64,000 nt of DNA from Cyanobacteriota bacterium (GCA_046052125.1 JBJOMY010000004.1:32001-96000), one strand, 5' to 3'; numbered from the stretch's first letter, positions 5,538 through 58,537 are shown. The notes: a model not told the origin generated them from the sequence alone. A program made the numbers and translations.

Positions 5538-5574
5538 ATGAGCCGGTTTGGCTCGGGCCCCTACGATCCCCGGC

Positions 5575-8647: not shown

Positions 8648-8653
8648 GGCGCT

Positions 8654-9400: not shown

Positions 9401-9458
9401 CCCCTCGGACGGCATTGACTCCTGATCTCTAGGATCCCCCACACACGGTGCCTCACTG

Positions 9459-10185: not shown

Positions 10186-10220
10186 GCGTTCGCCTGACAG
10201 AGCGGCGTTCTCTCGTCAGC

Positions 10221-10538: not shown

Positions 10539-10551
10539 TGCTCGTTTGAGC

Positions 10552-10716
10552 TCAGAGCTTGCGCTTGCACACTTCGCTTCGGTCTTCACCCTGGGTGGAG
10601 AAGGGGCCGCAGCTGAACCAGCGCACCATCGACACCTCAACGTCGGTGAACAGCACCAGGATTCCGGCGCATAGGGCCGCAACGGCGGCGCTGATCGCAA
10701 CGTGTGAGCCTTTCAT
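10552..10716 (-). CDS. Small membrane/exported protein, 54 aa (not in ORF track)
   Basis: Own translation MKGSHVAISAAVAALCAGILVLFTDVEVSMVRWFSCGPFSTQGEDRSEVCKRKL; 13 nt after bioD stop. Confidence 0.65.
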   Translation of the reverse strand: MKGSHVAISAAVAALCAGILVLFTDVEVSMVRWFSCGPFSTQGEDRSEVCKRKL

Positions 10717-10729
10717 GCACCGGGGCGCT

Positions 10730-12847: not shown

Positions 12848-14034
12848 GGCGCTCCCAGGGCGCTGAGCAACGCGTTGAGGCTGCCCGCGGGCAGATCGTG
12901 GCGGAGCACCAGCCTGAGCCGTGCACAGCCCTCGGGCACGGTGGGCGGCCGGATCGCCACGCTCAGCAGGCCGGCCTGCTCGAGCTGCTGTTGCAGCGCC
13001 AGGGCACGGCCGTCGTCGCCCACCAACAGCGGCAGGATCGGCCCGTAGCCGGGTGGACGCGGCCAGCCGGCCTGCTCCAGCTGGTCGCGCCAGCGCTCAG
13101 CGCGCTGCAAGAGTTGCGCGCCACGTTCGGGTTGCTCTTGGATCTGCGCCAGAGCAGCCAGGGCCGCCGCCGCCAGGGGCGGAGCCAGCGCTGTGGTGTA
13201 GCGGTAGGGGCCGGAATGCTGCAGCAGCCATTCCCCCACCAGGGCATCCGCGGCCAGAAAAGCCCCGCCACTGCCGAAGGCCTTGCCGAAGGTGCCACTG
13301 ATCAGGCTCACCTCGTTCAAGCCATGGCCCAGGCCGCGGCCACGGGGCCCAAGCACCCCCAGGGCGTGGGCTTCATCGAGCAGCAGGGCCGCGTTGTGTC
13401 TCTGGCAGAGCGCGCTGAGCGCGGGCAGATCCGGTGAGGTGCCCTCCATCGAGAACAGGCTTTCGCTGATCACCAGTAGCCGCTGCGCAGGGCGATCCCG
13501 GCGTGCCTGCTGCAGCCGCTCCTCCAGGTCGGCGAGGTTGTTGTGGGCAAAGCGTTGCAGCCCGGCGCCGCTGGCACGCACGCCCACCAGCAAGGAGTGG
13601 TGAATCAGCCGGTCGGCCAGCACCAGGGTGTGGCGATCCGCCAGGGCCTGCACCGCCGCCAGGTTGGCCTGAAAGCCACTGGGAAACAGCAGCACCCGTT
13701 CGCGCCCGAGCCAGGCCGCCAGCTCCGCCTCCAGCTCGGCATGCACAGCCCGGCTGCCGCTCACCAAGCGCGAGGCCCCTGCCCCCACTCCTTCGCGGGC
13801 CATGCACTGGTTCGCGGCCTCCACGAGGGCCGGGTGGCAGGCCAGGCCGAGGTAATCGTTGCTCGCCAGATCCAGCAGGGGCCGGCTTCCGTTGGCTGTG
13901 CTCTGCAAGCCGGCCGCGGCGGTGGGTTGCCAGCTGCGCAGCTCGCGCCGCCGCTCGGGCGGGAGTGCTTCGAGTGCCTTCGCCAGAGGAGCACTCCAGG
14001 AAGCTTCTGAGCCGGGGGCGTGCGCCTTAACCAA
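12844..14034 (-). CDS. bioF: 8-amino-7-oxononanoate synthase
   Basis: LASNDYLGL, ESLFSMEG, DEAHA, TFGKAFG, AIRPPTVP; start uncertain. Confidence 0.96.
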   Translation of the reverse strand: MVKAHAPGSEASWSAPLAKALEALPPERRRELRSWQPTAAAGLQSTANGSRPLLDLASNDYLGLACHPALVEAANQCMAREGVGAGASRLVSGSRAVHAELEAELAAWLGRERVLLFPSGFQANLAAVQALADRHTLVLADRLIHHSLLVGVRASGAGLQRFAHNNLADLEERLQQARRDRPAQRLLVISESLFSMEGTSPDLPALSALCQRHNAALLLDEAHALGVLGPRGRGLGHGLNEVSLISGTFGKAFGSGGAFLAADALVGEWLLQHSGPYRYTTALAPPLAAAALAALAQIQEQPERGAQLLQRAERWRDQLEQAGWPRPPGYGPILPLLVGDDGRALALQQQLEQAGLLSVAIRPPTVPEGCARLRLVLRHDLPAGSLNALLSALGAP

Positions 14035-14100
14035 GCCCGCTGCTGCGCGGTGGAGATCGTCTCAGTCTGCCCGCTGGTTGATTGCCCATAGGATCTGCTA

Positions 14101-43797: not shown

Positions 43798-45131
43798 GGC
43801 AGCAGCGGCTTCAGGGTTTGCGGCCTGGCTTCCAGCTCCCGCCACTGCTGCAGCCAGGAGCGCGCCTGGGGATCCTGCTGCGCGAGGCGGCGCAGCAGCG
43901 AGGCCGGCCGCAACCGCCCCCGTTCAGCACTCCGCAGCAGTTCGGCTGCAGCCAGCCGGCCCGTGAGCCGGGTGGTGTGCACCGCCAGCGCCGCCTGGGC
44001 GAGGGCCACCGGTGCGGCGGGGGCCAAACTCAGCCCACCGCTGAAGGGAGCAGCCAGCGTCAGCACCTGGCGCAGCCCCCCCAGCAAGAGCTGAATCCCC
44101 AGCTGGGTGCCGCCGAGCAGAGCGTTCTGGGCCGAGAGGCGCGTGAGCAGGGCCCGGGCCCCGCCACCGCCGAGTTCCAGCCCGTAGAGATCGCAGAGCT
44201 GCACCACCAGCGCTGTATCGAGGGCCAGGCCGCCGGCCAAATCCAAGAGCAGCAAGGGATTGGCGGCTACGCCGGTGGCCTTGAGAGCGGCGTAGCGCCC
44301 GATCAGGGCCTGGGCGCCCTCGCGGCCGCGCCGCAGCCGCCACTGATGCAGCCGCTGGGCGAAGCGATCGGCTGCCCGCAGCCCGTTCAGCCCCAGGAGC
44401 AGGGCGCCGTGCTGCTCCAGCAGATCGATCAAGGCCTGGCGCAGCGGTGCCACCTGGGGGGGCATCGGTTCACTGCGCACGCGCCCGTCATCCAGCACCA
44501 AGGCGCGCCGAGGGGCTGAGGCCACCGCCAACAGTTCCAGGTGCCGTGCCGCGGCAGGAAGACGGCGGCGAATGCTGGTGATCAGCGCGTCGCGTTCGCC
44601 CTGGGGCCAGCAATCGATGCGGTTGAGCACCAGCAGCACCGGTTTGCCGGCCGCCAGCAGTTGCTCGAGGGCTTCCGCCTCTGGGGTGGTGAGATCGCTG
44701 TCGAGCACCAGCAGCACCAGATCGGCACCGATGGCCACGCGCGCGGCCAGCCGTTGCCGAGCTCGAGCCGCGATTTCATCGATGCCAGGGGTATCCACCA
44801 GGTCCACCCCCGCGAGCCCGCGGATGGCGACGTCCCAGGGCTGGCGCTGTTGGTGGCGGGTGCAGCCATGGGCCACGTCGGTGGCGAAGGCGGCTTGGCC
44901 CAGCAGGGCATTGAGCAGGCTGGATTTGCCTACGCCCACGCGGCCGAACACAGCAACCCGCAGTCGCCGCTGATGCAGCGCCAACAGCTGTTGATCGAGG
45001 GCCTGCAGCTCAGGACTCAGCGCACTGCGCTCGCGATCGCTCAGCCGCAGCCCACTGCGCCACTCGCCCAGCAGCAGCTCGCAACGCTCAGCAGTGGAGG
45101 GTTGGCGCAAGGGCGGCGGTGGGTACGCCAT
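43794..45131 (-). CDS. Era-like GTP-binding protein with DUF697-type C-terminus
   Basis: GRVGVGKSS, DTPG, NRID; hydrophobic C-terminal half; start approximate. Confidence 0.85.
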   Translation of the reverse strand: MAYPPPPLRQPSTAERCELLLGEWRSGLRLSDRERSALSPELQALDQQLLALHQRRLRVAVFGRVGVGKSSLLNALLGQAAFATDVAHGCTRHQQRQPWDVAIRGLAGVDLVDTPGIDEIAARARQRLAARVAIGADLVLLVLDSDLTTPEAEALEQLLAAGKPVLLVLNRIDCWPQGERDALITSIRRRLPAAARHLELLAVASAPRRALVLDDGRVRSEPMPPQVAPLRQALIDLLEQHGALLLGLNGLRAADRFAQRLHQWRLRRGREGAQALIGRYAALKATGVAANPLLLLDLAGGLALDTALVVQLCDLYGLELGGGGARALLTRLSAQNALLGGTQLGIQLLLGGLRQVLTLAAPFSGGLSLAPAAPVALAQAALAVHTTRLTGRLAAAELLRSAERGRLRPASLLRRLAQQDPQARSWLQQWRELEARPQTLKPLLP

Positions 45132-45178
45132 GCATTGAAGCGGTTGTGCCATCGTCGCGCTCAGCACCGCTCACCCCC

Positions 45179-46501
45179 ATGCTGACCAGCCCAGCCGTGT
45201 TTGCAGAGCGTCGCAGCCGCTTCTTTCAGGCCCTGGGTGGCGCCGCAGCCGTGATCCCCGCGGCGCCGCTGGCGGTGCACCACGCCGACTGTGAGTGGCC
45301 CTTCCGCCAGAACAGCGACTTCTGGTACCTCACCGGCTTTGATGAACCCGATGCCGTGGCGCTGTTTCTGCCGCACCGGCCCGAGGGTGAGCGATTTGTG
45401 CTGTTTGTGCAGCCCAAGGAGCCCAGTGCCGAGGTGTGGAACGGCTTCCGTTGGGGTTGTGAAGGCGCGGTGCAGCAGTTTGGGGCTGATCTGGCCCATC
45501 CCCGCTCGGAGCTGGCGCAGCGATTGCCGGAGTATCTGAGTGGGGCCGAGGGCATCGCCTTCCGGGTGGGCAAACATCCCGCCGTGGAGCCGTTGGTGCT
45601 GCAGGCCTGGGCAGGGCAGTTGGATCGTGCTCCCCGCAGTGGTGCGGCTGCTCTGGGGCTGGTTGCTCCCTGCCCGCTGCTGCATCAGCTGCGTCTGCGC
45701 AAGACGCCCGAGGAGCTGGTGCGCATGCGCGAAGCCGCCCGCATCTCGGCCGAAGCTCATGAGCTGGCCCGTCAGGTGGCCCGGCCCGGTTTGATCGAGC
45801 GCCAGGTGCAGGCGGTGATCGAGCAGCACTTCCTCGAACAGGGTGCGCGCGGGCCTGCTTACAACTCAATCGTGGCCGGCGGTGATAACGCCTGCGTGCT
45901 GCACTACACCGCCAACAACGCCCCCCTGCGGGACGGCGATCTGCTGCTGATCGACGCCGGCTGCTCCCTCGCGGACTACTACAACGGCGACATCACCCGC
46001 ACCTTCCCCATCAACGGTCGCTTCAGCGCTGAGCAGCGGGCCCTCTATGAGCTTGTGCTGGCGTCTCAGGAAGCTGCTGTGGCTGCCGTGGCTCCGGGGC
46101 AGACCGCTGAAGGGGTGCATGCCACGGCTGTGCGTGTGCTCGTTGAGGGTCTGCTGGAGCTTGGTTTGCTTGCCGGCAGCGCCGACGGAATCATCGAGCA
46201 GGGCTCCTATCGCCACCTCTACATGCATCGCACCGGGCATTGGCTCGGCCTTGATGTGCACGATGTGGGCGCTTATCGCCTGGGTGAGCACCACGTGGCC
46301 CTCGAGCCCGGCATGGTGCTCACCGTGGAGCCGGGCCTGTACGTGAGTGATCGCCTGCCCGTGCCGGAGGGGCAGCCAGCCATCGAAGAACGCTGGAAGG
46401 GCATTGGCATCCGCATCGAAGACGACGTGGCCGTGACCGACCACGGCCACGACAACCTCACCGCCGCTGCCTTGAAAGCGCCCGCTGCGATGGAGCGCTG
46501 A
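45179..46501 (+). CDS. pepP: Xaa-Pro aminopeptidase P
   Basis: FRQNSDFWYLTG, DITRT, HWLGLDVHD, EPG, RIEDD. Confidence 0.96.
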   Translation: MLTSPAVFAERRSRFFQALGGAAAVIPAAPLAVHHADCEWPFRQNSDFWYLTGFDEPDAVALFLPHRPEGERFVLFVQPKEPSAEVWNGFRWGCEGAVQQFGADLAHPRSELAQRLPEYLSGAEGIAFRVGKHPAVEPLVLQAWAGQLDRAPRSGAAALGLVAPCPLLHQLRLRKTPEELVRMREAARISAEAHELARQVARPGLIERQVQAVIEQHFLEQGARGPAYNSIVAGGDNACVLHYTANNAPLRDGDLLLIDAGCSLADYYNGDITRTFPINGRFSAEQRALYELVLASQEAAVAAVAPGQTAEGVHATAVRVLVEGLLELGLLAGSADGIIEQGSYRHLYMHRTGHWLGLDVHDVGAYRLGEHHVALEPGMVLTVEPGLYVSDRLPVPEGQPAIEERWKGIGIRIEDDVAVTDHGHDNLTAAALKAPAAMER

Positions 46502-46507
46502 GGTCGC

Positions 46508-47287
46508 TCAGCGCAACAGCAGCTCGAGGCTTTCCAGGACAGCCGTGGTGCTCGGGATCACGGCATCCGCTCCGGCCTCGAGCAGTTGTGCCTCGTAGTG
46601 GCCGCGGCGTTCCTGCGCTTCAGGGGTGTGGAGGTGCGGCGGGGCGACGGCCAGGCTCAGGAAGGGGTGCTCCGGTTGCTCCTGGCGCGCGCGCTGCACC
46701 GTGATCACATCAGCCACCGTGTCCCCCAGATAAGCCACCGGGATCGAAGGCTGTGTTCCAAACGGCGCTTGGAGCAGCTCCGCCGCAAGCCTCAGGAACC
46801 CCGTGGGGTCGGGTTTGTCGGGGGCATCGCCCATGGCGATCAGCGGAGGCTGGTGCAGCCCCAGGCGTTGCTCGAGCACGAAGCGAGCCGATGGTGGTTC
46901 GGCTCCACTCACAAACCCCCAAGCCACGCCGGCGTGGCTGAGTTGATCGAAGAAGCGGGGCTCCACCAGCAGCGGCTCACTGCCGATGAAGCCCCGCCAC
47001 TGGCCGGGGTCGCCGTTGGGATTGCCGCCGAAATAGAAGCCGTTGAACACCTCCACCAGGGCCTCAAAGGCGGGGAGCTGGCCGAGCCCGCCGCGGCGCA
47101 GCAGTTCCAGGGAGGCCTCCCAGTCGTTGTTCCAGCAGCCCTCTGCCTTGAGCGCATCAATGGCGGCCGGCTCGGGCCGCACACCGCTGTAGTGATGCAC
47201 CGTTTCCACGATGGCGCGCCTGTAGCTGCCGCCCACATCCCGGATCACGCCGTCGATGTCGAACAGCAGCAGAGCTCGCGGTATCAG
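46508..47287 (-). CDS. HAD-family hydrolase (TIGR01548-like)
   Basis: LLFDIDGVIRDV motif I lies upstream of track start; KPDP, GDTVAD; start probably CTG/ATA. Confidence 0.88.
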   Translation of the reverse strand: MIPRALLLFDIDGVIRDVGGSYRRAIVETVHHYSGVRPEPAAIDALKAEGCWNNDWEASLELLRRGGLGQLPAFEALVEVFNGFYFGGNPNGDPGQWRGFIGSEPLLVEPRFFDQLSHAGVAWGFVSGAEPPSARFVLEQRLGLHQPPLIAMGDAPDKPDPTGFLRLAAELLQAPFGTQPSIPVAYLGDTVADVITVQRARQEQPEHPFLSLAVAPPHLHTPEAQERRGHYEAQLLEAGADAVIPSTTAVLESLELLLR

Positions 47288-47329
47288 GGGGTGGCGGCAG
47301 CGGCTGGTAGGTTAGTTCTTTGTGATTAA

Positions 47330-47812
<483 letters not shown>

Positions 47813-47840
47813 TCGCGCGAGCAAGGCACATCGTCGCTCT

Positions 47841-47864
47841 GAGCTCCCTCACGGGAGCTTTTTT
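47841..47864 (+). terminator. Intrinsic terminator after ycf65
   Basis: AGCTCCC-TCAC-GGGAGCT-TTTTT. Confidence 0.85.
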
Positions 47865-47901
47865 ATTGGTCGCATAGGCTTTGTGGCACTGCGCTGCGGC
47901 G

Positions 47902-48876
47902 CTACTGCCGCCCCCGCATCACCTGGCCGAAGCTGCTGCCGGTGATCAGGGCGGGGTTGGTGGCGGTGTCAACGGTGAAGCTGCGGGATTCGCTCTGGCT
48001 GGTGCCGTCGGGGTACACAAAGGTCACCAACCCCTCCAGGGTCACAACGGAACCGTTGCGGCCCGTTTCCTGGAGTTGGTCCACGCTGACCCGTTGAAAC
48101 TGGCGGAAGAAGGCCGGATCGAACTGGTCGGCTGCTTCGCCGCTGAACCGTTGGCGAGCCGCCTGTATGTTGCCCATCGAGAGCTCGTTGTAGAGCTGCT
48201 CCACGCTGCTCACCGCTTGGGCGCCTGCCGTATCGGTGCTCCCGAGTCCGAGCTCCGGGGCTGGTGGGGTCTCTGTTCTGGGGGCCTGTGGCTCGGGTGT
48301 TGCGGTGGTGCCGTTCAGCCCAGGGAAGCCAGTGTTGCTCGGACCGGCCGTGGGTTGATTGGTTTGAAGCAGCAGCCAGGCCAGGCCGCCGCCCACGCCC
48401 ACCACCAACACACCGGCGATGAAGCTGAGCACCGCCACCAAACCGCCGCTGCCGTTTCCTTCCTGCGCCGGTTCTGAGTCGTCGTCCTGGTCTTGAGCGG
48501 GAAGAGGAGCTGCGGGCGGTTCGGGGCTTGCGGCAGCCGTGGGTGGTTGGATCCGGCTTGTTTCGCTGAGCCCGAGCAGGCCTCTCAGCACCGCATCCAT
48601 GCGTTCGCAGATTGGTGCCGCGAACACCTGGTTGAGTTCCTGCTGCAACCGCAATTGCAGCCGTTGATCGGCAGCCAAGGGTGGCTGCTGGGCCGTCGCG
48701 CTGCTGAAGGCTGGTGTCATCACCAGGTATTTGAGGGCTGGCAGCAGGGCCAGCTGGCTGTTGCCGCAGAAGTCGCCCACGAGGGCCTGCAGCCGGCGCC
48801 CATCACTCGCCAGGCCCCGCTCCAGGTCAGCCAGGATCTGCCGGCGCAGGTTGGCTCCGAGGTCGTAATCGTTCAC
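47902..48876 (-). CDS. Single-pass membrane protein: helical N-domain, Pro-rich linker, TM, exported NTF2-like(?) C-domain
   Basis: GTG start overlaps PP2C stop (GTGA); TM LVAVLSFIAGVLVVGVGGGLAWLLL; C-terminal helix + beta-strand pattern. Confidence 0.8.
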   Translation of the reverse strand: MNDYDLGANLRRQILADLERGLASDGRRLQALVGDFCGNSQLALLPALKYLVMTPAFSSATAQQPPLAADQRLQLRLQQELNQVFAAPICERMDAVLRGLLGLSETSRIQPPTAAASPEPPAAPLPAQDQDDDSEPAQEGNGSGGLVAVLSFIAGVLVVGVGGGLAWLLLQTNQPTAGPSNTGFPGLNGTTATPEPQAPRTETPPAPELGLGSTDTAGAQAVSSVEQLYNELSMGNIQAARQRFSGEAADQFDPAFFRQFQRVSVDQLQETGRNGSVVTLEGLVTFVYPDGTSQSESRSFTVDTATNPALITGSSFGQVMRGRQ

Positions 48877-50096
48877 GGCTTCACAGGCGCAGCGCCAGGC
48901 GTTGCAGGTGCAGGCATCTTGCCCTTTGTTGGCGGTTGGGGTGAGCGGGCCAGCTGCCATTGCAGGGCCAGTTCCTGGCGCAGCCTTGGGCAGCTCTTTA
49001 GCGAGTCTGATGGGCTGGCGGCAATCAGGGCCCCCAGGGGATCGATGGCCACGCGCTCGCGGAGCAGCGCCGCGGCTTGGGGCTGTTCCAGCAGTTGTCT
49101 GAACTGGGCTCGGCGTTGGCTGAGGCTTGAGCGGATCTGCTCGGGTTGGCCGCAAAGCGCCTGCACCTGAGCCTCCAGAGGTGAGGGGCGGCGCAGCACA
49201 AGCCAGCTTCCCAGGCCCAGCAGGCCGCCGAGCACCAGCAGAACGGCGATGGGGCCGGCGTGTCGCCAGCCCATCCCTGGGCGGGAGGGGCGCTCCTCAG
49301 GGCCGTTCGCCAGGGAGCAGATCGCCAGTGAGACGTCGTCGCCACTGCCGTCTCGGGTGATCTGTGCCAGTCCCCGTTCCAGCTCGGCGCTGTCCTCCAG
49401 ATCCACCACCCCGGCGCAGAGGGCCAGGAAGTCGACATCGGTGGCGCAGGATTTGCGCACCCCATCGGTGCTCAGCACCAGGGCCCGCAGCGTCTGGTTC
49501 GCCTCCAGTAGCTGCAGCTGGGCGCGCGGCTGCCAGCACTGCTGATCCGGCGCTTGGCAGAGGCTGCCAGTGGCCTCACTACCGCTGTGCTCTGTCTCCT
49601 CGCTGAGGAGCCAGGCTTGCCCCTGCCCATCCACGCCGGCGAGATCCCAGTCGCCGATGCCGCTGCAGGCCCACCAGCGCGGCGCCAGTAGGGCCAACCC
49701 CAGGGTGCTGCCGTAGCTGAGAGCGGAAAACGGTTGCACGCTGGCCTCGGGGCGCTGCTGCCAGTCGGCTTCGATCGCTTGCAGCCATTGGGCCTGGATG
49801 CGGGCTGGTAGATCGCTGTTCAGTCGTTGCCGCCAGCGCTCCGCCTGGTTCAGGGGCGTGTCCTTCAGCAGGTCGCTCACCACCTGCTGCGCCACGGCGC
49901 AGGCCAGGGCGCTGCCCCGGTGGCTCAGGTGGTAACGGCTGCCGCCGTGGCCATCGGCCACGGCCATCAGTTGCAGGCTGTCGTTCCCCGAGTGGAGGGT
50001 GATGCCGAGGCTGGCGTCCTGGCAGGGTTTGTTCTGGCGCTGGTGGGCAGCACCGATCACACTGCACACCCGCGCCGGCCGCCAGTTGCCGCTCAC
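48873..50096 (-). CDS. PP2C-family (TerY-P/YegK-like) phosphatase with TM and C-terminal extension
   Basis: SVIGAAH..PCQDA, AVADGHG, GSTL, IGD, LSTDG, GDDVS; TM IAVLLVLGGLLGLGSWLVL. Confidence 0.9.
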   Translation of the reverse strand: MSGNWRPARVCSVIGAAHQRQNKPCQDASLGITLHSGNDSLQLMAVADGHGGSRYHLSHRGSALACAVAQQVVSDLLKDTPLNQAERWRQRLNSDLPARIQAQWLQAIEADWQQRPEASVQPFSALSYGSTLGLALLAPRWWACSGIGDWDLAGVDGQGQAWLLSEETEHSGSEATGSLCQAPDQQCWQPRAQLQLLEANQTLRALVLSTDGVRKSCATDVDFLALCAGVVDLEDSAELERGLAQITRDGSGDDVSLAICSLANGPEERPSRPGMGWRHAGPIAVLLVLGGLLGLGSWLVLRRPSPLEAQVQALCGQPEQIRSSLSQRRAQFRQLLEQPQAAALLRERVAIDPLGALIAASPSDSLKSCPRLRQELALQWQLARSPQPPTKGKMPAPATPGAAPVKP

Positions 50097-50836
50097 CACA
50101 CCAGCGGGCCGACGTCATCGCTCGGATCCAGCAGGGTGGGAGGAAGATCCGGCAGGTGGATGTTGCTGCCGCTTTCTGGGCTGGGTTCTCCCGCCGGTGC
50201 CACGCGGCTGGCCGGCATGGATGCCGCACCCACCACGGCCGTGGAGGCCCACTGGATGTATTGCGCCAGGGTGGTGGCGTTACTGGCCTGCAGCGGCCGC
50301 CGTGGCGATTTGCTGCGCCCGCTTGGTTCCGGGCCGATGAACTGCTGCAGCACCTCCAGATCCGCGTCATGGCCCATGGCGATCGCCAGGCGCACCGCCT
50401 TTTGGGCCCAGGGACGGCGCATCAGGTTCGCCAGGCCCGCTTCGAAGTCGTCGGTGGGTTGGCCATCGGAGATCAGCACCAGCACCGGTGGGAGCGCCCG
50501 CTCTTCCATGGGCGGCGACTGCAGCGCCTCGGCCACGAGGTTCAGCGCATCGCCCATGGCGGTGATGCCTCCGGCCTCGAGGTCGCGCCACTGCAGCTGC
50601 TGCACTGGTGTGGGCTCCGCCAGGTGCCAGGCCGCCTGATCGGCAAAGCGCACGGCCCGCACCAGCACGCGCGCCTCAGGGTTTTCGCGGGCCACCTCAG
50701 CCATGCCCGGCAGCGACTGGCGGATGGCCTGATTCAGCGCCTGCATCTTCCCCTGGGCGGCCATCGAGCCGGAGCAGTCGCAGAGATAGATGAAGTGCAG
50801 CGGCCGGTTGCTGAGCCGAACGTTGGGGAAGGCCAT
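50093..50836 (-). CDS. terY: TerY-like vWA domain protein
   Basis: RPLHFIYLCDCSGSM (MIDAS DxSxS), GITAMGDAL, LISDGQPTD. Confidence 0.9.
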   Translation of the reverse strand: MAFPNVRLSNRPLHFIYLCDCSGSMAAQGKMQALNQAIRQSLPGMAEVARENPEARVLVRAVRFADQAAWHLAEPTPVQQLQWRDLEAGGITAMGDALNLVAEALQSPPMEERALPPVLVLISDGQPTDDFEAGLANLMRRPWAQKAVRLAIAMGHDADLEVLQQFIGPEPSGRSKSPRRPLQASNATTLAQYIQWASTAVVGAASMPASRVAPAGEPSPESGSNIHLPDLPPTLLDPSDDVGPLVW

Positions 50837-50839
50837 GGC

Positions 50840-52174
50840 TTAGGGGCGCAGCACCAGGATGGGCCCGGCGCTGCTGTTGAGCTGCTGCAGGGCCGAGAGA
50901 TTACAGGTTTTGCCTGGGGCCAGCTCGATGTGCTGCCCTGTGCGTGTCGATCCGTGCCAGGTGCTGGAGGTGAGGTTCTGCAAGCCCAGCAGGCTCGGAT
51001 CGCTGGGATGAGCCACCAGCCTGGCGAGCGGCGTTGCGATCGCCTCCCCCAGCAGCGGATCGAAGTGGTGGGGGTGCAGTTCGTTGCCGGCCGCCGCCGT
51101 GACCCGCCCGTGGGGCAGCTGCAGCTGCAGCGCTGCCGGTAGCGGAGTGCCGCAGCTCCAGCAGCTCCCTGGGCCCTCGGGGTTGGGAAAGGTTTCCTGG
51201 CCGCAGTGGCCGCACAGTTGCCGTTGATCGAGGCAGTGGCTGATCGCCTGCTTCCACTGGCCGGTGAGGGTGCGCTGCTCCGGGTTGCGCAGGCCGGGCC
51301 CGAAGCTCTGCACAAACAGCCGTTGCAGCGCTTCGGGGTAGATCGGCCAGGTGATCAGCGCTGCACTGTGCTCGATCGGATCGGGCCGGTTGGCGGGGTT
51401 GTGGGGATCGAAGATGAACAGCGCCCCTTCTCCGTAGATCCGGCGGCGGGCTGGTTCATCCAGGCAGCGAATCGCCAGTTCTCGCTGGCCGCGAAACGGA
51501 TCGTGGCGCGTCAGCAGCCGGAAGAGCAGCACCGCCAGGGAGAACAAATCGCTGCCGGTGCTCGGTCTGGCCTGGCCGAGCAGCACCTCCGGAGCCATGA
51601 ATCCAGGGGTGCCGAGCACGCTTCCCTGGCCCTGCCCGTCGATATCCACGTTGTCGTTGTCGCAGATCAGGATGCGGCCGCTGCTGTGCTCGAGGAACAG
51701 GTTGCCTAAGGAAATGTCCTTGTAGCAAAGGCCTTTGAGGTGCAGCTGGTGGAAGGCTTCCGCCAGGTGAAAGCAAGCCCGCAGCACGCTCTGCAGGCTG
51801 ATCTCCAGCTCACCGCCAGCGTGCTGATGGGCACCCACGAAGCCGCCGGGCCGCAGGCCCATCAGGTAGCCGAAGCCCGTTTGAGGGCCCTGAATGAGGC
51901 GCTGGCTGTCGGCGCTGGCTGAAAGCACCGCCAGCGGCCAGAGGAAATCGGCGTTCGGTGCCCCCAGGCGAATGCTCTGCTGCAGCCTTGAGCGCAGCTG
52001 CGGATCCCTGGCGATGCACGCCGGGAAGTACCACTTCAAGGCCAGTCGCTCGCCCGCCAGCTTCACCGCATACACCTGGCCCTGGCTGCCTCCTCCGAGG
52101 CCCTGCTCAATCAGCAGTGGCTGCTCCAGGCCTTCGAACTGCAGGCTTGAGCCTTCCGGGAGCAACCAGTTCAT
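50840..52174 (-). CDS. TerY-P-type Ser/Thr protein kinase with C-terminal Zn ribbon
   Basis: LGGGSQGQVY, ALKWY, YKDISLGN, CDNDN, GTPGFMAPE, DLFSLAV; CGHC...CWSC. Confidence 0.92.
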   Translation of the reverse strand: MNWLLPEGSSLQFEGLEQPLLIEQGLGGGSQGQVYAVKLAGERLALKWYFPACIARDPQLRSRLQQSIRLGAPNADFLWPLAVLSASADSQRLIQGPQTGFGYLMGLRPGGFVGAHQHAGGELEISLQSVLRACFHLAEAFHQLHLKGLCYKDISLGNLFLEHSSGRILICDNDNVDIDGQGQGSVLGTPGFMAPEVLLGQARPSTGSDLFSLAVLLFRLLTRHDPFRGQRELAIRCLDEPARRRIYGEGALFIFDPHNPANRPDPIEHSAALITWPIYPEALQRLFVQSFGPGLRNPEQRTLTGQWKQAISHCLDQRQLCGHCGQETFPNPEGPGSCWSCGTPLPAALQLQLPHGRVTAAAGNELHPHHFDPLLGEAIATPLARLVAHPSDPSLLGLQNLTSSTWHGSTRTGQHIELAPGKTCNLSALQQLNSSAGPILVLRP

Positions 52175-52890
52175 GCCGGGGCGGTGCTGTCCTGGCCGAT
52201 GGCCTGACGGATGCCATTGCGATGCGCGAGGGCCGTGCGGCGGTTGGCGAAGCCATGGCGGAGGGCACGGCCATCACGCAGCACCAACACCAAGTTGTGC
52301 TCCTTGCGGGAGCCCAGCAGGATCCAGCCAGCCAGGGCTCCCGCCTGTAGCGGCCAGAACAGCAGCGGGAACGGCAGTAGCAAGAGGCCACCCAGGCAGA
52401 GCAGCAGCCACCAACTGAAGATGTGGGGATGCTGAGGCAGGCTTTGCACGGCCGCCGAGCGGATCTCGGCGATGGCCACTTGGCGCTCGCCCACGCTGAT
52501 GCTGCGCGGAGCGCTGGCTGAAGGAGGCGCGCTCGCGCGGGGCGCCTGGCTTGGCTTGGGAGCAGCTGGCTCAGGGCTGGCGCTGCACTCGAACACCAGC
52601 ACCGGACCGTTGCGCCCCAGCCGAATCTCATCGCCATCCTCGAGCCGGCGGCACTGACGGACTTGCTTGCCCTCGAGGAAGGTGCCATCGCTGCTCTGCC
52701 AGTCGCACACCAGCCAGCCCTGGCTGCGCGAGAAGCGCACCACGGCGTGGTGATCGGAGACCCCCTCGAGGCTGGCCAGGCAGAGGCGGTTGGCCGCAGC
52801 GCGCCCGATCGTGAGCGGCTGAGCCGGATCCAGCGGTGCCACCTTGCGGCGATCGCTGGCCAGCAGGAGCCGGGCGCTCGGGCTGCTCAT
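52171..52890 (-). CDS. FHA-domain membrane protein
   Basis: TIGR, VSDHHA, SSDGTFL, DGDEIRLG; two C-terminal hydrophobic segments. Confidence 0.88.
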   Translation of the reverse strand: MSSPSARLLLASDRRKVAPLDPAQPLTIGRAAANRLCLASLEGVSDHHAVVRFSRSQGWLVCDWQSSDGTFLEGKQVRQCRRLEDGDEIRLGRNGPVLVFECSASPEPAAPKPSQAPRASAPPSASAPRSISVGERQVAIAEIRSAAVQSLPQHPHIFSWWLLLCLGGLLLLPFPLLFWPLQAGALAGWILLGSRKEHNLVLVLRDGRALRHGFANRRTALAHRNGIRQAIGQDSTAPA

Positions 52891-53162
52891 GGTTCACCCC
52901 GGCGGCGGCGCCACCACAGGCGCCAGTCGTCGCGGAGGTCGTTCCACCAGCCGCCATCACCCTCGCGGTAGGGCACCACACGGCCAGGAAAGAGCAGCGC
53001 TTTGCTGGCTAGGGCCAATGCAATGAGCACCATCACCAGCAGCACCCAGCCAGGGATGGCCCCCACCCAGGTGGCGGCGAAGAACGCCCGAATTGCATAC
53101 AGCCCGATCGTTAACGCCAGCCACAGCCGGAAGGGTTCCCAGGGGTCCCGCTGGCGCAGCAA
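52887..53162 (-). CDS. Small 2-TM protein with Trp/Arg-rich tail
   Basis: Two hydrophobic segments, tail WWNDLRDDWRLWWRRRR; stop overlaps FHA ATG (ATGA). Confidence 0.7.
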   Translation of the reverse strand: MLRQRDPWEPFRLWLALTIGLYAIRAFFAATWVGAIPGWVLLVMVLIALALASKALLFPGRVVPYREGDGGWWNDLRDDWRLWWRRRRGEP

Positions 53163-55483
53163 CGATCCGCTTGAAGGCTGGCCGTAGCCTATGGCCGGGC
53201 TGCAACACCCGCCTGGTTACCCCTTCTCAGCTCGAATACCTGAAGGCGCGCTTGGCCTCGGAGGAGGTGCGTCAGGCCTGGCGTGCGTTGGCCAAGGCGG
53301 CGCTGCAAGGACCCTGGCGGCAGCGGCCAGCGGCCATCACCCAGGCCTGGCAACCGCTGCGCGCCCATCAGGCCAGCGTGGAGCTCTGGGCCGGCGGCCA
53401 GAAGCTCACCGAGCTGGCGCTCGAACCCCAGCGCTACAGGCTGGGCCGCGATCCTTCCTGCGATTTGCCCCTGGCGGAAGCCGGCTTGAGCCGTGTGCAC
53501 GCCATCCTCGAGAAGCAGCGCCCGAGCGATCGCGAGTTCGCGCTCGAAGATTTCAACTCCGCCAATGGGCTGTTCCACCGTGACCGCCGGATTCGCTGGA
53601 TTCAGCTCCGCGATGGCGATGCGGTGCGACTGGGCTCTCCCCTCAAGGGCGAGGCACCGGAGCTGCGCTATCGCCACCCCCGCAGCCCGCTGGAGCAGGC
53701 GGTGCATCTATTGGGTGTTGCAGCCCTAGCTGGATCCACGCTGTTGGTGAGCGGCATGCTCGTGGCGGCGAGCATCGGCGGCGGTTCGAAGATCCGCTCC
53801 ATCTCGGGCCCGGTGAAGATCTTTTCGGCCGACCGCCGCCAGATCGATGCCAAAGAGGGATCCTCTACGGCTCTTCCCTCGCTGCAGTCGTATCCCCTGC
53901 ATCTGCGCCAGGCGCTGATGGCTTCCGAGGAAGCTCGCTTTGGCTGGAACAGCGGCATCGATCTGTTTGGCACGCTGCGCTCAGCTCTGCTGGGTACAGG
54001 CGGCGGCAGTGGCCTCACTCAACAGGTGGCCCGGATGGTGTATCCGGAGGTGGGTCGAGATCTGAGCCTCACGCGCAAGTTGCGGGAGCTTTGGGTGGCG
54101 CTGCAGCTGGAGGTGGGCTTCAGCAAAAACCGGATCCTCAAGCTTTACCTCGATCGCGCTTACCTCGGCCTGGGCAGTGAGGGGTTTGAGCAGGCCTCGC
54201 AGCTGTATTTCCGCAAATCAGCCAGCGATCTCGATGTGGGTCAGGCGGCGTTTCTCGTGGGCCTGCTGCCCAGTCCCAATGGCTACAGCCCCTGCAATCC
54301 AGAGGATCCCGGCGCCGGCCTGGAACGGCGCAATCTGGTGCTCAAGCTGATGCATGAGCAGGGTTGGCTCAGCGATCAGGCCCTGATCGATGCGCAGCGG
54401 CGCCCACTCAACATCGATCCCTCAGCCTGCCGCGAATCCACCTTCAGCAGCTATCCCTTCTTCAGTGATTACGTGCTGGGGGAGCTCGAAGGCACACGCT
54501 TTGGGCTTGATCTCAGCAGTGCTGATGCCGATGGCAATTACGCCGTGGTCAGCACGATCAACCCCCGCTTGCAGCAGCTGGCGCAGGATCAGCTCAAGCG
54601 CTTTCTCGAAGGGCCAGCCGCTGCAGCCGGGTTGAGCCAGGGAGCCCTGATCACGGTGAACACCGAAACCGGCGACATCGTGGCCTACGTGGGTGGGGGC
54701 GACTACAGCCGCTCCAGCTTTGATCGGGTGCAGGCGCTCCGCCAACCCGGCTCCACGTTCAAGCTCTTCCCCTATCTGGCGGCCTTGGCGGCCGGGGCCT
54801 CACCCGCTGATCCGATCTCCTGTGCGCCGCTGGCCTATGTCGCGGGTTGCCGTCACGGCGGCGGCAGCACCTCCATGGCGGATGGCCTGGCCTTCTCGGA
54901 AAACGTGGTGGCCTTGCGCTTGGCGGAGCGGGCCGGGTTCTCAGCGGTGCTCAAGATGGCGCGTCGCCTCGGCATCTCCACACCGCTGGACGCCGACTAC
55001 AACACCATGCTGGGTGGGCGCGAAACCTATCTCTACGAGCTGGCCCGGGCCTACGCGGTGGTGGCCAACGGCGGCCGTTCCGTGCCGATGCACGGTGTCA
55101 GCCGGATCTACGACCTGGGGATCTGTGGCTCGATCAAAAGCCTGGAGACCTGCCCGGAGCGTGGCGTAACCGTGCCGATTGGCGAGCAGTCGCGCCAGCT
55201 GATCAGCCCAGAGGTGGCGGCCAGCATGGATGAGCTGCTCGCTGGGGTGGTGCAGCGCGGCACAGGCCGTGCCGCAGCCCTGGTGCCCGATGCCCGCGGT
55301 AAGACCGGCACCACCAACAACGGCGTGGATGTGTTGTTTGTGGGCTACTCCCCAGCCAGCAAACTGCTCACGGCGATCTGGATGGGCAACGACGACAACA
55401 CTCCGGCTCAGGCCGCCAGTGGCGCTTTGGTGGCTGATTTGTGGGGGCGTTACATGCAGCAGGCCCCTACAGCAGCTCCTTGA
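53093..55483 (+). CDS. FHA-fused class A penicillin-binding protein (transglycosylase + transpeptidase)
   Basis: FHA (LGR, SRVH, NSANG), TM, GT51 motifs (SEEARF, GSGLTQQ, RKLRE), TP motifs STFK / SEN / KTG; true start probably about 53210-53270. Confidence 0.9.
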   Translation: MHTARSLTPATAGRVPRGPAGAATIRLKAGRSLWPGCNTRLVTPSQLEYLKARLASEEVRQAWRALAKAALQGPWRQRPAAITQAWQPLRAHQASVELWAGGQKLTELALEPQRYRLGRDPSCDLPLAEAGLSRVHAILEKQRPSDREFALEDFNSANGLFHRDRRIRWIQLRDGDAVRLGSPLKGEAPELRYRHPRSPLEQAVHLLGVAALAGSTLLVSGMLVAASIGGGSKIRSISGPVKIFSADRRQIDAKEGSSTALPSLQSYPLHLRQALMASEEARFGWNSGIDLFGTLRSALLGTGGGSGLTQQVARMVYPEVGRDLSLTRKLRELWVALQLEVGFSKNRILKLYLDRAYLGLGSEGFEQASQLYFRKSASDLDVGQAAFLVGLLPSPNGYSPCNPEDPGAGLERRNLVLKLMHEQGWLSDQALIDAQRRPLNIDPSACRESTFSSYPFFSDYVLGELEGTRFGLDLSSADADGNYAVVSTINPRLQQLAQDQLKRFLEGPAAAAGLSQGALITVNTETGDIVAYVGGGDYSRSSFDRVQALRQPGSTFKLFPYLAALAAGASPADPISCAPLAYVAGCRHGGGSTSMADGLAFSENVVALRLAERAGFSAVLKMARRLGISTPLDADYNTMLGGRETYLYELARAYAVVANGGRSVPMHGVSRIYDLGICGSIKSLETCPERGVTVPIGEQSRQLISPEVAASMDELLAGVVQRGTGRAAALVPDARGKTGTTNNGVDVLFVGYSPASKLLTAIWMGNDDNTPAQAASGALVADLWGRYMQQAPTAAP

Positions 55484-56582
55484 TCCTGGTGACCAGGGCC
55501 CAACCCAGTCCGAGCAGCAGACCCCACCCCCAGCAGCTGCTCAGCAGCCGTTGCCACGGGGTGGTTGGCTCCTGCGGATCGAGCCGCGGCAGTTGCCATC
55601 CCAGTTGCAGCGCCCCGTAGACCAGCAGCAGCACCCAGGCTGGGATTTCCAGCCCAACGCTCTCGAAGCTGAACGCACGCCAGTGCAGCAGGCTCAACCC
55701 CGCCGCCAGGGCGATCAAGGCGCTGATCGCTCCCGATGCACCACTCCAGACCCGCAGGACGCCCCAACGACTGGCGCCCAGGGCGGCCAGTCCAAGGCAG
55801 GCCAGGGCTGTGAGGCTGTAGCGCAGGATCACGGCGCCCAGCGGCAGGGGTGAGTTGCCCAGCAGGATGAGCAACAGCGTCAGGTTGAGGCTGGCTTCAA
55901 GCCCATTGCGGTGGATCCAGGCCTGGCTCAGCCATTGCCAGGCCTGGCGCGGCAGGCCGGCTTCATCGCTTGCCAGGGGCCAATGGCGCTTCAGTTGTTT
56001 CAGCGGCCCCAACGCCAGGGCTTGAATCAACCCCAGAACAACCACCAGCACCACCCCACCGCTCCAGCCCCAGGCGTCGAACAGGGCTCGATCCAGCTCG
56101 GTGCCGCTCCAGGCGAACACCAGAGCGCCTGCCGCCGCTAAGGCGATACCAGGTGCGAACAGCTCCAGATCCCTGCGGATGCTCCGGGAGCGCTTGGCTG
56201 CGGCACGAGCAGAAACCGCTTCAGCGGCGCTGGCCGGCTCAGGCTCTGGTTCGGTTGGAGGCTTTGAGGGTTGGGCGCCGCCGCTCTGCCCCGTGGCGGC
56301 TTGCAGCAGATCGAGGAGCTCGTGCAGTACCGCCGGGGAGTAGGTGTTGCTGAGTTGGCTCGTGAGGCTGGCCAAGGCCGATTGCTGCGTGGCTCCCTGG
56401 CTGTGGAGTGCTTGCAGCAGCAGAGGCTGAGCCGCTAGATCGCGGATGGGCCCCCGCAGGCTGTCGTTGGCCCCGAGCGCATCCATTAGCCGGTTGGTGA
56501 GGGCCCGCGATTGACGCAGGCTGCTGGCATCCGCCACCAGCCATTGGCGCACCTGTTCCCCCAGTTCGTGGCCGACGCCCAT
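55467..56582 (-). CDS. Rhomboid-fold membrane protein with soluble N-domain
   Basis: WQWLSQAWIH..N, SGASGA, IPAWVLL; about 6-7 TM; no TM6 His. Confidence 0.75.
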   Translation of the reverse strand: MGVGHELGEQVRQWLVADASSLRQSRALTNRLMDALGANDSLRGPIRDLAAQPLLLQALHSQGATQQSALASLTSQLSNTYSPAVLHELLDLLQAATGQSGGAQPSKPPTEPEPEPASAAEAVSARAAAKRSRSIRRDLELFAPGIALAAAGALVFAWSGTELDRALFDAWGWSGGVVLVVVLGLIQALALGPLKQLKRHWPLASDEAGLPRQAWQWLSQAWIHRNGLEASLNLTLLLILLGNSPLPLGAVILRYSLTALACLGLAALGASRWGVLRVWSGASGAISALIALAAGLSLLHWRAFSFESVGLEIPAWVLLLVYGALQLGWQLPRLDPQEPTTPWQRLLSSCWGWGLLLGLGWALVTRIKELL

Positions 56583-56655: not shown

Positions 56656-57060
56656 TCAGGCCTTGCTGGCTTGCACGCGAGCGCGAGCGCGGGCGAGTTC
56701 CTGCTGAGCCTTGATTTTTTCGGTGCTGGAGGGCTGACCCTCGAACTTGGCGAGAGCAGCGGTTGCGGCATCCAACTCCTTGCTGGCGGCCTCAGCGTTG
56801 ATGCTGCTGCCTAGTTCGGCAGCATTCACCAACACGGTGACTTCATCGGCGTCGACTTCAGCGAAGCCTGCCTGGAGGGCAATGGCTTTCCAGCCGTTGC
56901 CTTCACGCACCCGCAGCACACCGAAATCAAGGGCGGTGAGCAGGGAAACGTGACCGGGAAGGATCCCGAGCTGACCAGTGGTGCTGGGCAGGATCACTTC
57001 GTCGGCGGTGCCGTCGAAAACGCTCTGGTCAGGCGCCAGAACGCGAAGGGTGAGAGACAT
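56656..57060 (-). CDS. atpC: ATP synthase F1 epsilon (cyanobacterial atpE)
   Basis: LPSTTGQLGILPGH, GFAEV. Confidence 0.98.
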   Translation of the reverse strand: MSLTLRVLAPDQSVFDGTADEVILPSTTGQLGILPGHVSLLTALDFGVLRVREGNGWKAIALQAGFAEVDADEVTVLVNAAELGSSINAEAASKELDAATAALAKFEGQPSSTEKIKAQQELARARARVQASKA

Positions 57061-57076
57061 CGGTTAAGCCTCCGGA

Positions 57077-58537
<1,461 letters not shown>

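Follow-up and report, generated by a model that had tools for sequence, protein, structure and literature searches.

A Cyanobacterial Genomic Island Combining a TerY-P-Like Phospho-Signaling Triad with an FHA-Tagged Class A Penicillin-Binding Protein

Introduction

Does a compact set of kinase, phosphatase, FHA-domain and envelope genes in a picocyanobacterial genome constitute a single signaling module, and what would such a module control? This question is raised by an 8.7-kb block of eight open reading frames (ORFs) located at positions 47902-56582 of a 64,000-nt stretch of DNA (hereafter, the window) from Cyanobacteriota bacterium (GCA_046052125.1; JBJOMY010000004.1:32001-96000). We label these genes G1 to G8: a small membrane protein (G1), an FHA protein with transmembrane (TM) segment(s) (G2), a Ser/Thr kinase (G3), a vWA protein (G4), a PP2C phosphatase (G5), a single-pass membrane protein (G6), an FHA-fused class A penicillin-binding protein (PBP; G7) and a rhomboid-like protein (G8). 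Genomes are designated by three-digit labels, the source genome being G000, and loci cut out of genomes by L labels. An initial annotation, made from the sequence of the window, proposed that the block is non-core and that its kinase (writer), phosphatase (eraser) and two FHA proteins (readers) form a self-contained circuit controlling a peptidoglycan synthase, with envelope stress, phage or predator contact as suggested triggers.

We regard the block as a known kind of system, the TerY-P triad, in a new form that brings two new elements: an N-terminal domain shared by G6 and G8 (hereafter, N-dom) and a bacterial rhomboid pseudoprotease. The island probably tunes cell-wall synthesis. How Ser/Thr kinases and FHA readers control peptidoglycan synthases has been studied in depth in Gram-positive bacteria; in cyanobacteria, such control is, to our knowledge, hardly known. 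A full-text literature search returned no TerY-P triad accompanied by FHA proteins and a PBP and no FHA-fused PBPs in cyanobacteria; the founding TerY-P paper (Anantharaman et al. 2012) lies beyond the scope of this search and may mention FHA associations.

Distribution and Co-Inheritance of the Block

We searched every protein of the block in the same set of 151 genomes of the family, each at least 90% complete. The kinase was found in 37 of these genomes, belonging to 8 of the 36 genera, and it was not found in the small-genome genera of this set. Its presence varies inside genera (1/9, 4/9, 1/7 and 1/2 genomes). In the source genus, 21 of 24 genomes possess the kinase, and the three genomes without it are 72%, 93% and 100% complete. 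In all five kinase-negative relatives that were checked, ycf65 and atpC, the genes that bound the block in G000, are convergent neighbors lying 162-541 bp apart. Because the kinase is restricted to 37 of 151 genomes and its absence leaves these two genes adjacent, the block is a non-core island, as the initial annotation had claimed, and it behaves as a present-or-absent unit.

The co-occurrence of the other genes with the triad of kinase, vWA protein and PP2C had been chosen beforehand as the point on which the proposal could fail. The orthologous FHA-PBP (G7) was found in 36 of the 37 kinase-positive genomes and in none of the 114 kinase-negative ones (0/114), and in all 36 cases it lies on the same contig as the kinase, less than 2 kb away. 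Orthologs were called with the N-terminal 200 residues as query; 36 matches were strong (E ≤ 2.2e-59), with none between these and 2.2e-23. The only family genome with the kinase but without an orthologous FHA-PBP is G056. The gene for G8 was present in 32/37 kinase-positive and 0/114 kinase-negative genomes. The gene for G6 was present in 26 genomes (25/37 and 1/114, respectively), the single outsider matching its C-terminal domain only.

Nineteen family loci were cut out of kinase-positive genomes; these were picked for long contigs and spread over genera and are not a random sample. Twelve of the 19 contain all eight genes between the same two flanks, two (genus g52) lack G6, four (L016, L024, L026 and L027) have the six-gene core of G7 and G1-G5, and one (L023) has the triad only. 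The small gene G1 is present in 18/19 loci, with 55-93% identity. In three loci (L016, L026 and L027), the six-gene core is found between other chromosomal flanks. The copy of genome G108 (L016) is one of these; its kinase and its PBP N-terminus are respectively 72% and 76% identical to those of the source genus, relative to 56-67% for the copies of other genera. That this copy is closer to the source genus than the copies of other genera argues for the transfer of the six-gene core as one piece.

The core of the module is therefore composed of the PBP (G7), G1, the FHA-TM protein (G2), the kinase (G3), the vWA protein (G4) and the PP2C (G5). G6 and G8 are accessory: both are missing from relocated copies, and G6 is also missing from most of genus g52. 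Taken together, the co-occurrence and the movement of the PBP with the triad indicate that the writer, the eraser, the readers and the PBP are one inherited unit. The proposal thus passed the co-occurrence test that the initial annotation had set for it. The parts of this unit are scarce in G000. Its genome encodes three FHA domains, two in the block and the third on a paralogous PBP. G7 is the third of its GT51 genes, where each of five block-negative relatives possesses one or two. It has two Pkinase genes that exceed the Pfam cut-off, G3 included.

A TerY-P-Like Triad

In excerpts of two publications (PMC11090510, PMC7159879), the TerY-P module is described as a TerY-like vWA protein and a PP2C together with a kinase to which a zinc ribbon is fused. 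The triad genes of the block are adjacent in one operon in the order kinase-vWA-PP2C; 3 nt separate the first two, and the last two overlap by 4 nt. In the kinase, the G-loop, K47, D153, N158, D172 and the APE motif are invariant in 19/19 sequences, and so are a zinc ribbon (C321xxC324...C338xxC341) and an HH pair in its C-terminal part. The zinc-ribbon models of Pfam match G3 weakly (E 0.016-0.5). The beta-rich C-terminal part of G3, for which Pfam has no family, presents structural look-alikes at the ends of other bacterial kinases. The MIDAS of the vWA protein (DxSxS...T...D) is intact in 20/20 orthologs, and the metal motifs of the PP2C (QD, DGHG, (T/S)DG and GSGDD) are kept in 19/19. Two cysteines of the periplasmic PP2C tail are conserved in all orthologs having this tail.

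We compared G3 to a plasmid collection (tblastn, E ≤ 1e-10) and matched 2188 plasmid records, mostly enterobacterial, in two of which the gene context was read. A kinase 26.6% identical to G3 (E 1e-15) is encoded in the ter locus of a Klebsiella plasmid beside PP2C, TerY-C, VWA, TerD and TerW. The kinase of a Prevotella plasmid is 32.5% identical (E 6e-54) and presents the same kinase-VWA-PP2C order. A scan with the PADLOC models, which the initial annotation had suggested as a check, called no defense system in the block: the vWA protein matches TerY at E 7e-4 (17.2 bits), the kinase matches the PD-T4-6 and mad6 kinase models, and the PP2C matches none. A single weak kinase match was obtained in a phage collection. 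Judging from the intact MIDAS, the zinc ribbon of the kinase and the likeness to the triad kinases of Ter plasmids, the triad is TerY-P-like, and both architecture and sequence similarity back the assignment made in the initial annotation. The catalytic residues of the kinase, PP2C, vWA protein and PBP are intact, and from these residues the triad looks active.

The FHA Proteins and the Accessory PBP

The orthologs of G7 keep the catalytic motifs of class A PBPs: the Glu of GT51 motif 1, RKxxE, SxxK, SxN and KTG. The NCBIfam model PBP_1a_fam scored 382.5 bits on G7, below its cut-off of 508.75. GT51 motif 1 (window 53927-53956, residues 279-288 of G7) reads SE(E/D)xRFGWNSG in 19/19 orthologs. 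The FHA domain of G7 retains the GR, SR(V/I)H and SxNG motifs in 19/19 orthologs, and in the FHA domain of G2 the Asn is often Asp among the 19 orthologs. The start codon of G7 is uncertain, with candidates from 53093 to ~53288, which corrects the initial annotation; the longest frame shares 70 nt with the 5' end of G1, which is encoded on the opposite strand. The ~45 residues preceding the FHA domain ('AWRxLAxAALxGPWRxRPAAI') are conserved at the protein level across genera.

A second FHA-fused class A PBP is encoded in G000 (C1:75679-77817, minus strand). Its N-terminal part is 33-39% identical to that of G7 and its FHA domain begins right at the N-terminus. This paralog differs from the G7 orthologs at GT51 motif 2 (GGSTLTQQ, relative to GGSGLTQQ, in which a single ortholog has A for T) and at the middle FHA motif (SLQH). 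When the paralog is counted, 98 of the 151 family genomes match the FHA-PBP query, many of them kinase-negative, and on the basis of these matches FHA-PBPs are a general feature of these picocyanobacteria. The gene following the paralog encodes a 525-aa membrane protein. The only other Pkinase gene of G000 above the Pfam cut-off (C2:363291-365261, plus strand, 656 aa) is a candidate partner of the paralogous FHA-PBP.

A Rhomboid Fold without Protease Residues

The initial annotation described G8 as a rhomboid-fold protein. The AlphaFold2 (AF2) model of G8 has a mean predicted local distance difference test score (pLDDT) of 86, and its top 31 Foldseek matches are all GlpG (template-modeling score by target 0.53-0.65; best E 4.6e-3). 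A wide fold search, independent of Foldseek, also ranked GlpG best (Z 11.1, root-mean-square deviation (rmsd) 3.3, 146 residues aligned). The six top matches of this search were GlpG, iRhom1, iRhom2, Der1, a designed rhomboid fold and Derlin (Z 11.1-5.9), and the next best match beyond the rhomboid superfamily had a Z of 5.6. The N-dom part of the G8 model reached Z ≤ 5.6 only. At the sequence level, the Pfam Rhomboid model scored 22.1 bits on G8, under the gathering cut-off of 22.6, and the G8 profile gave a chance-level match only against PDB sequences (E 0.33).

We located the catalytic positions by motif and model helices rather than by residue-level structural alignment. So placed, the GxSG position of TM4 (S283) holds Ser in 9 of 15 orthologs, relative to Ala in 5 and Thr in 1; the protein of the window has Ser. 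No His is found in the TM6 segment (residues 315-330, 'YGALQLGW') in 15/15 orthologs. With this His absent throughout and the Ser replaced by Ala or Thr in 6/15, we ruled out that G8 is a rhomboid protease. G8 is instead a pseudoprotease, since it combines the rhomboid fold with a missing catalytic His and a varying Ser. The fold proposed by the initial annotation was retained.

G6 and the Shared N-dom

In G6, a helical N-dom of ~100 aa is connected by a disordered linker to a TM segment (144-162), from which a Pro-rich linker leads to a periplasmic domain (aa ~210-324); pLDDT exceeds 85 in both domains of its AF2 model. The C-terminal domain adopts the NTF2-like alpha+beta cone fold (Z 12.7, rmsd 2.3, 114 residues aligned; 138 chains with Z ≥ 8), on which Foldseek agrees (best E 8.5e-4). 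No Pfam family, ARC6-like_IMS included, was detected in G6 itself. In L026 (G170), the PP2C, its TM segment and periplasmic tail and the NTF2 domain of G6 are fused into one 547-aa ORF.

The first ~100 residues of G8 present nearly the same helix pattern as the N-dom of G6 in the models. BLASTP of G6 against G8 found nothing (best E 0.68), and hhalign of the full G6 and G8 alignments gave a probability of 1.4% only. Since these pairwise comparisons gave no link, the kinship of the two N-doms rests on profile searches through intermediates. Hidden Markov models (HMMs) of both N-doms find the same intermediate proteins over their full length, the G6 HMM finds a G8 ortholog at 8.7e-4 (database of ~18,500 ORFs), and a combined N-dom profile finds an untrained member (L023, 4716-5465) at 1.8e-9. 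In the whole genome of G000, N-dom was found only in G6 and G8, even after four profile iterations. The intermediates are single-pass proteins found beside the relocated cores (L016, L026 and L027), in the block of G080 (L025) and beside the triad of G056 (L023). Two of them lie next to the PBP of relocated cores (L026, 4071-5480; L027, 11357-12712).

We then extended the search to 1.84 billion proteins (E ≤ 0.001) with a wide N-dom profile, which included five possible distant relatives. This yielded 1,434 cluster representatives, in which the domain is almost always N-terminal, and the picocyanobacterial profile alone recovered 137 of the best 150 representatives. These proteins are named 'hypothetical' in their sources. 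We scanned 120 representatives and found 104 without any Pfam family; the other 16 include TPR (6), RDD (2), ARC6-like IMS (2), Rhomboid (1, above the cut-off), MORN, a phosphonate-type binding domain, LRR, Lcl_C and FtsH_ext. The securely linked group includes the TPR, ARC6-like IMS, FtsH_ext and Rhomboid types only.

The two N-doms are predicted to pair. Complex prediction gave a score of 0.76 for the N-doms of G6 and G8, relative to 0.15 for the best control. A score of that mark is reached by 116 of 157 solved complexes and by 2 of 215 mismatched pairs, figures that apply roughly because our own alignments were used. Three runs agree in 100% of contacts, with partner pLDDT of at least 89, and the predicted interface comprises residues 43-53 and 82-89 of G6 and 41-48 and 78-86 of G8. 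That equivalent segments meet at the predicted interface would fit a homotypic contact between homologs and could equally reflect self-association.

Relatives in Other Cyanobacteria

The kinase was searched in 401 genomes of the class (E ≤ 1e-15) and matched 22 of them; six full-length matches come from other cyanobacterial families (40-45% identity). Five loci were cut from this wider set (L033-L037). In L033 (G339, 1931-11041) and L034 (G205, 3664-11026), from filamentous-type cyanobacteria, the kinase is accompanied by vWA, PP2C and FHA-TM proteins, by FHA-PrsW, an intramembrane metalloprotease, and by an RDD membrane protein whose N-terminal helical domain is conserved ('WAVESWA'). L033 encodes in addition a YkuD L,D-transpeptidase, and the same N-terminal domain recurs there on a MORN protein. 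In L035, L036 and L037, this N-terminal domain is joined to a binding-protein-like domain. L036 (G486, 4658-13678) and L037 (G337) also encode a second kinase, fused to vWA (525 aa); in this variant, the protein with the N-terminal domain is 559 aa long and has a phosphonate-type binding domain, and the neighbors include a TM protein of 147 aa as well as two FHA proteins (178 and 676 aa). The RDD, MORN and substrate-binding-protein N-terminal domains of filamentous cyanobacteria were not recruited by the picocyanobacterial N-dom profile in four iterations. Single-profile comparisons with N-dom gave E values of 0.14-1.2, and hhalign gave a probability of 40% with E 2.9e-4. It is therefore possible, on these sequence comparisons, that this domain is distantly related to N-dom.

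Within the family, the triad of L023 (G056, 1423-14932) has a PP2C without TM segment and no PBP. Its neighbors encode a 785-aa FHA-FHA-ABC-2 transporter, an N-dom protein and two trypsin-TPR proteins, together with a Zn peptidase, a DUF2939 protein and a phage-type integrase. L023 shares trypsin proteins with nearly identical N-termini with the island of L016 (G108). A more distant vWA-kinase pair (27-33% identity) in L030 (G029, 6990-13187) is flanked by genes for an Abi_2/HEPN-like protein and an SF1 helicase of 1085 aa and adjoins a DDE transposase, a context that looks like a defense island. The recurring theme is a TerY-P-type switch associated with FHA-tagged membrane or envelope proteins whose output domain changes.

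Proposed Mechanism and Alternative Interpretations

We favor phospho-control of peptidoglycan synthesis because the constant output of the module is the accessory FHA-PBP. More precisely, we hold with about even confidence that the block is one inherited signaling module that places an accessory FHA-tagged class A PBP under Ser/Thr phospho-control. The soluble TerY-P-type kinase and the MIDAS vWA protein would phosphorylate Thr on membrane-proximal partners or on the kinase itself, and the FHA heads of G2 and of the PBP would dock on these phosphothreonine (pThr) sites. Docking would assemble or release a membrane complex that sets the activity or the position of the extra PBP. The PP2C would reset the switch, and its periplasmic tail with the Cys pair, together with the NTF2 domain of G6, would read the state of the wall or periplasm; G5 and G6 are linked by their translational GTGA overlap and by the PP2C-TM-tail-NTF2 fusion of L026. 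The dead rhomboid G8 may be tied to G6 through the pairing of their shared N-terminal domains and would serve as a scaffold binding TM helices, not as a protease.

Several observations weigh against phospho-control of the PBP. The kinase presents no sensor, TM or PASTA domain detectable by Pfam or hydropathy, and the PP2C lacks its TM segment and tail in L016 and L023. The pThr-binding Arg of the G2 FHA domain is kept in 14 of 19 orthologs, and five have Lys (4) or Cys (1). GT51 motif 1 has Asn in 19/19 G7 orthologs where the FHA-PBP paralog of G000 has His. Because this paralog occurs in many triad-less genomes, FHA-PBPs can do without this kinase. Among the 37 kinase-positive genomes, 5 yielded no G8 and 12, mostly of genus g52, no G6; in G099, G8 lies 1.2 Mb from the kinase. 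As the family genomes are related to one another, they are less independent than the co-occurrence counts suggest. A general dimerizing tendency of homologous helical domains may account for the predicted N-dom pairing. Finally, the substrates, the trigger (stress, phage or predator in the initial annotation) and the effect on wall synthesis are all inferred.

A broader version of this model is tentative and, in our view, doubtful. It posits that N-dom (at least 137 representative clusters, no Pfam family) is a ~100-aa cytoplasmic adaptor acting by homotypic pairing, which would wire the dead rhomboid and interchangeable periplasmic sensors (NTF2/ARC6-like, TPR, FtsH_ext) to a TerY-P-type switch gating FHA-tagged envelope enzymes. 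In that case, the dead rhomboid would correspond, in bacteria, to iRhom or Derlin and would keep the PBP, the PP2C and G2 together by their single TM helices in one phospho-regulated complex.

The triad might instead sense infection, with the PBP, the dead rhomboid and the variable periplasmic proteins acting as envelope effectors that block adsorption or injection or cause abortive lysis. TerY-P-like modules are indeed reported as stand-alone anti-phage systems, and triads as part of restriction loci, in excerpts of two studies (PMC11090510, PMC4978471). The patchy, island-like spread across 8/36 genera and inside genera would suit such a role, as would the phage-type integrase beside the G056 triad and the Abi_2 and SF1 helicase neighbors of the distant G029 pair. 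The outer domains of N-dom proteins (TPR, ARC6-like IMS, FtsH_ext, rhomboid) are also highly variable, a pattern typical of conflict systems. We nevertheless consider an anti-phage or conflict system unlikely. PADLOC calls no system, its kinase matches being to generic models, and no nuclease, NTPase or toxin-like effector was found in the block with Pfam, PADLOC or NCBIfam. Moreover, the phage collection gave its one weak match only, and most carriers have the module at the same locus, with vertical-looking divergence (kinase 56-82% identity) and a GC-content equal to that of the surroundings.

Two further readings concern the cell cycle and the status of G6 and G8. A module timing septal or polar peptidoglycan synthesis in the normal cell cycle, rather than a stress response, would resemble the actinobacterial fhaA-fhaB-pstP-rodA-pbpA-pknA-pknB cluster, which likewise combines two FHA proteins with a membrane PP2C, a PBP and Hanks-type kinases. 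The ARC6-like IMS domain, from a cyanobacterial and plastid division protein family, occurs on 2 of the 120 scanned N-dom relatives, and the C-terminal domain of G6 belongs to the same NTF2-like fold class. This seems quite unlikely to us, given that 114 of the 151 family genomes divide without the module, that the kinase has no PASTA or TM sensor, that the PBP is a class A enzyme present as a third, extra copy and that the block contains no RodA/FtsW gene. It is very unlikely, in our estimate, that G8 and G6 are mere co-inherited neighbors of the PBP-triad core without functional tie to it. Both are absent from the relocated cores L016 and L027, L026 keeps only the NTF2 part of G6, G6 is not found in most g52 genomes, and G8 is unlinked in G099. 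Yet the 114 kinase-negative genomes contain no full-length homolog of either protein, other N-dom proteins stand beside the relocated cores and the G056 triad, and G6 is both translationally coupled to the PP2C and, through its NTF2 domain, fused to it in L026.

Phospho-control of the accessory PBP, our preferred reading, would make the island a compact and testable system for a PBP switch based on pThr docking: the class A PBP carries the reader domain as a direct fusion, and the circuit travels in its entirety as an island. The block also indicates that the TerY-P triad, hitherto tied to tellurite resistance and DNA-targeting defense, is coupled to envelope enzymes as well. A bacterial rhomboid pseudoprotease with a regulatory head and a sizeable protein family with an unnamed N-terminal domain constitute wider leads. 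The island may matter for wall remodeling, grazing or phage resistance in its carriers, which are abundant picocyanobacteria.

Comparison with Known Systems

TerY-P triads occur in Ter loci, in restriction loci and as stand-alone defense systems. The block resembles them in its three adjacent genes, its intact MIDAS, its zinc-ribbon kinase and the kinship of this kinase to those of the Klebsiella and Prevotella plasmids. It differs from them by the absence of Ter genes, TerY-C domain, nuclease and helicase, and by its PP2C, which is membrane-anchored with a periplasmic tail. Its triad is joined by envelope proteins tagged with FHA or with N-dom, a PBP among them, and PADLOC does not call the block. 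The closest printed case, judged by its description, is the DRA0331-DRA0334 operon of Deinococcus radiodurans. Excerpts of a preprint describe a vWA protein, a Ser/Thr kinase, an FHA protein and a PP2C, with FHA domains acting as phospho-docking switches between kinase and phosphatase (10.64898/2026.01.23.701218). The same four domain types are thus found in one operon in both cases. As excerpted, the Deinococcus PP2C has, in contrast, its own KI-FHA domain, the context is the DNA-damage response, and no PBP, membrane anchors, rhomboid-like protein or N-dom proteins are described.

The actinobacterial fhaA-fhaB-pstP-rodA-pbpA-pknA-pknB cluster is conserved and controls peptidoglycan synthesis. 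Like the block, it groups two FHA proteins, a membrane PP2C, a PBP and Hanks kinases. Unlike in the block, its kinases are membrane proteins with PASTA sensors, its PBP is a class B enzyme that pairs with RodA and carries no FHA fusion, and no vWA gene is present; the cluster is core and essential-like there, and the block is accessory here. In Mycobacterium tuberculosis, Rv1747 is an FHA-FHA-ABC exporter controlled by the neighboring kinase PknF. It shares with the block the fusion of FHA to a membrane output protein controlled by a neighboring kinase, and the triad relative of G056 carries exactly such an FHA-FHA-ABC-2 transporter instead of the FHA-PBP. The output of the block is, however, a PBP, and its kinase is of TerY-P type with vWA and PP2C partners.

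The threonine-phosphorylation pathway of the type VI secretion system (T6SS) uses PpkA, PppA and Fha1 to gate the assembly of a membrane machine on envelope cues, and PpkA carries a vWA domain. Kinase, PP2C, FHA reader and vWA domain are common to this pathway and the block. The block differs in having no T6SS genes, a vWA domain on a separate cytoplasmic protein and a PBP as output. Among inactive rhomboids, the G8 model matches iRhom1 (Z 10.5), iRhom2 (Z 9.1) and Der1 (Z 7.5), and G8 lacks the catalytic dyad as they do. It also shares with them an N-terminal cytoplasmic domain, putatively regulatory. Unlike the eukaryotic iRhoms, G8 is bacterial and has no iRhom homology domain, and client binding by G8 is inferred; its best structural match is still the active protease GlpG.

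Gene Layout and Expression

The block lies between ycf65 and atpC/atpD (Table 1). The eight ORFs lie where the initial annotation had placed them, and its domains, overlaps and flanking terminators were borne out by ORF, Pfam, junction and hairpin checks. Hydropathy indicates TM segments in 6/8 proteins, the kinase and the vWA protein having none, in line with the claim that six of the eight are membrane-anchored. The G+C content is ~67% across the window, and the block shows no compositional break relative to its surroundings.

Table 1. Features of the block and its flanks, in window coordinates.
Feature	Position	Strand	Evidence
ycf65	47333-47812	+	Pfam PSRP-3/Ycf65, E 1.7e-27
Terminator-like hairpin 3' of ycf65, left island edge	47841-47860	+	8-bp stem, 5 GC pairs, then T-run
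G6, single-pass membrane protein, 324 aa	47902-48876	-	No Pfam, NCBIfam or PADLOC family; GTG start in GTGA overlap
N-dom of G6 (aa 1-105), six-helix cytoplasmic domain	48562-48876	-	Predicted from model; no Pfam family
G5, PP2C (aa 15-245), TM (284-302), periplasmic helical tail	48873-50099	-	Pfam PP2C_2, 5.4e-28
G4, soluble TerY-like vWA protein	50093-50836	-	Pfam VWA, 2e-6
G3, soluble Ser/Thr kinase, zinc ribbon, C-terminal beta-rich domain	50840-52174	-	Pfam Pkinase, 8.4e-16
Zinc ribbon of G3 (C321-C341)	51152-51214	-	Invariant cysteines
G2, FHA, linker, TM segment(s) from aa 160, short tail	52171-52890	-	Pfam FHA, 9.6e-15; hydropathy
FHA domain of G2	52615-52812	-	Pfam
G1, 91 aa, two TM segments, Trp/Arg-rich tail; first operon gene	52887-53162	-	Hydropathy; no family
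G7, class A PBP: ~45-aa N-terminal extension, FHA, TM, GT51, transpeptidase	53093-55483	+	Transgly 1.6e-40, Transpeptidase 1.1e-23, FHA 2.1e-13
FHA domain of G7	53435-53635	+	Pfam
G8, rhomboid-like: N-dom (aa 1-100, 56283-56582), linker, 7-TM rhomboid-fold domain	55467-56582	-	AF2 model
Terminator-like hairpin 3' of atpC, right island edge	56634-56611	-	10-bp stem, 7 GC pairs, then T-run
atpC	56656-57060	-	
atpD	57077-58537	-	

The minus-strand operon has the order G1>G2>G3>G4>G5>G6. Its junctions, read from the sequence, are an ATGA overlap for G1/G2 and for G2/G3, a 3-nt gap between kinase and vWA genes, and a GTGA overlap for vWA/PP2C and for PP2C/G6; at the vWA/PP2C junction, an alternative GTG start one codon upstream is possible. 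G7 is divergent from G1, and G8 converges on G7 with a 17-nt overlap (55467-55483). The terminator scan as a whole was not enriched (7 sites relative to 5.5 +/- 2.2 in shuffles), and because it did no better than shuffles, only the two long stems that bound the island carry weight. A promoter scan found 0 sigma-70-like sites. G1 and G6 match no family in the Pfam, NCBIfam or PADLOC models, and Pfam searches of isolated sub-regions (kinase C-terminus, PP2C tail, G2 tail, G1 and G6 C-terminus) gave nothing usable.

We examined contigs of four RNA libraries from four studies (one riverine and three freshwater metagenomes). At every one of the five operon junctions, contigs from two or more runs span the two genes; such libraries may hold DNA, and a contig spanning two genes does not prove one transcript. 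The pieces labeled X1 present 0-1 differences on the block. In the three freshwater runs, RNA depth is 0-45 on the block, some bins of which are uncovered, and 70-2,500 in most flank bins (ycf65 and atpC; window 47300-47950 and 56780-57100). These data weakly support a low-level transcription of the block.

Upstream of ycf65, window 45119-47248 contains two flank genes of 460 aa (plus strand) and 246 aa (minus strand), and their synteny with ycf65 is kept in 15 of the 19 family loci.

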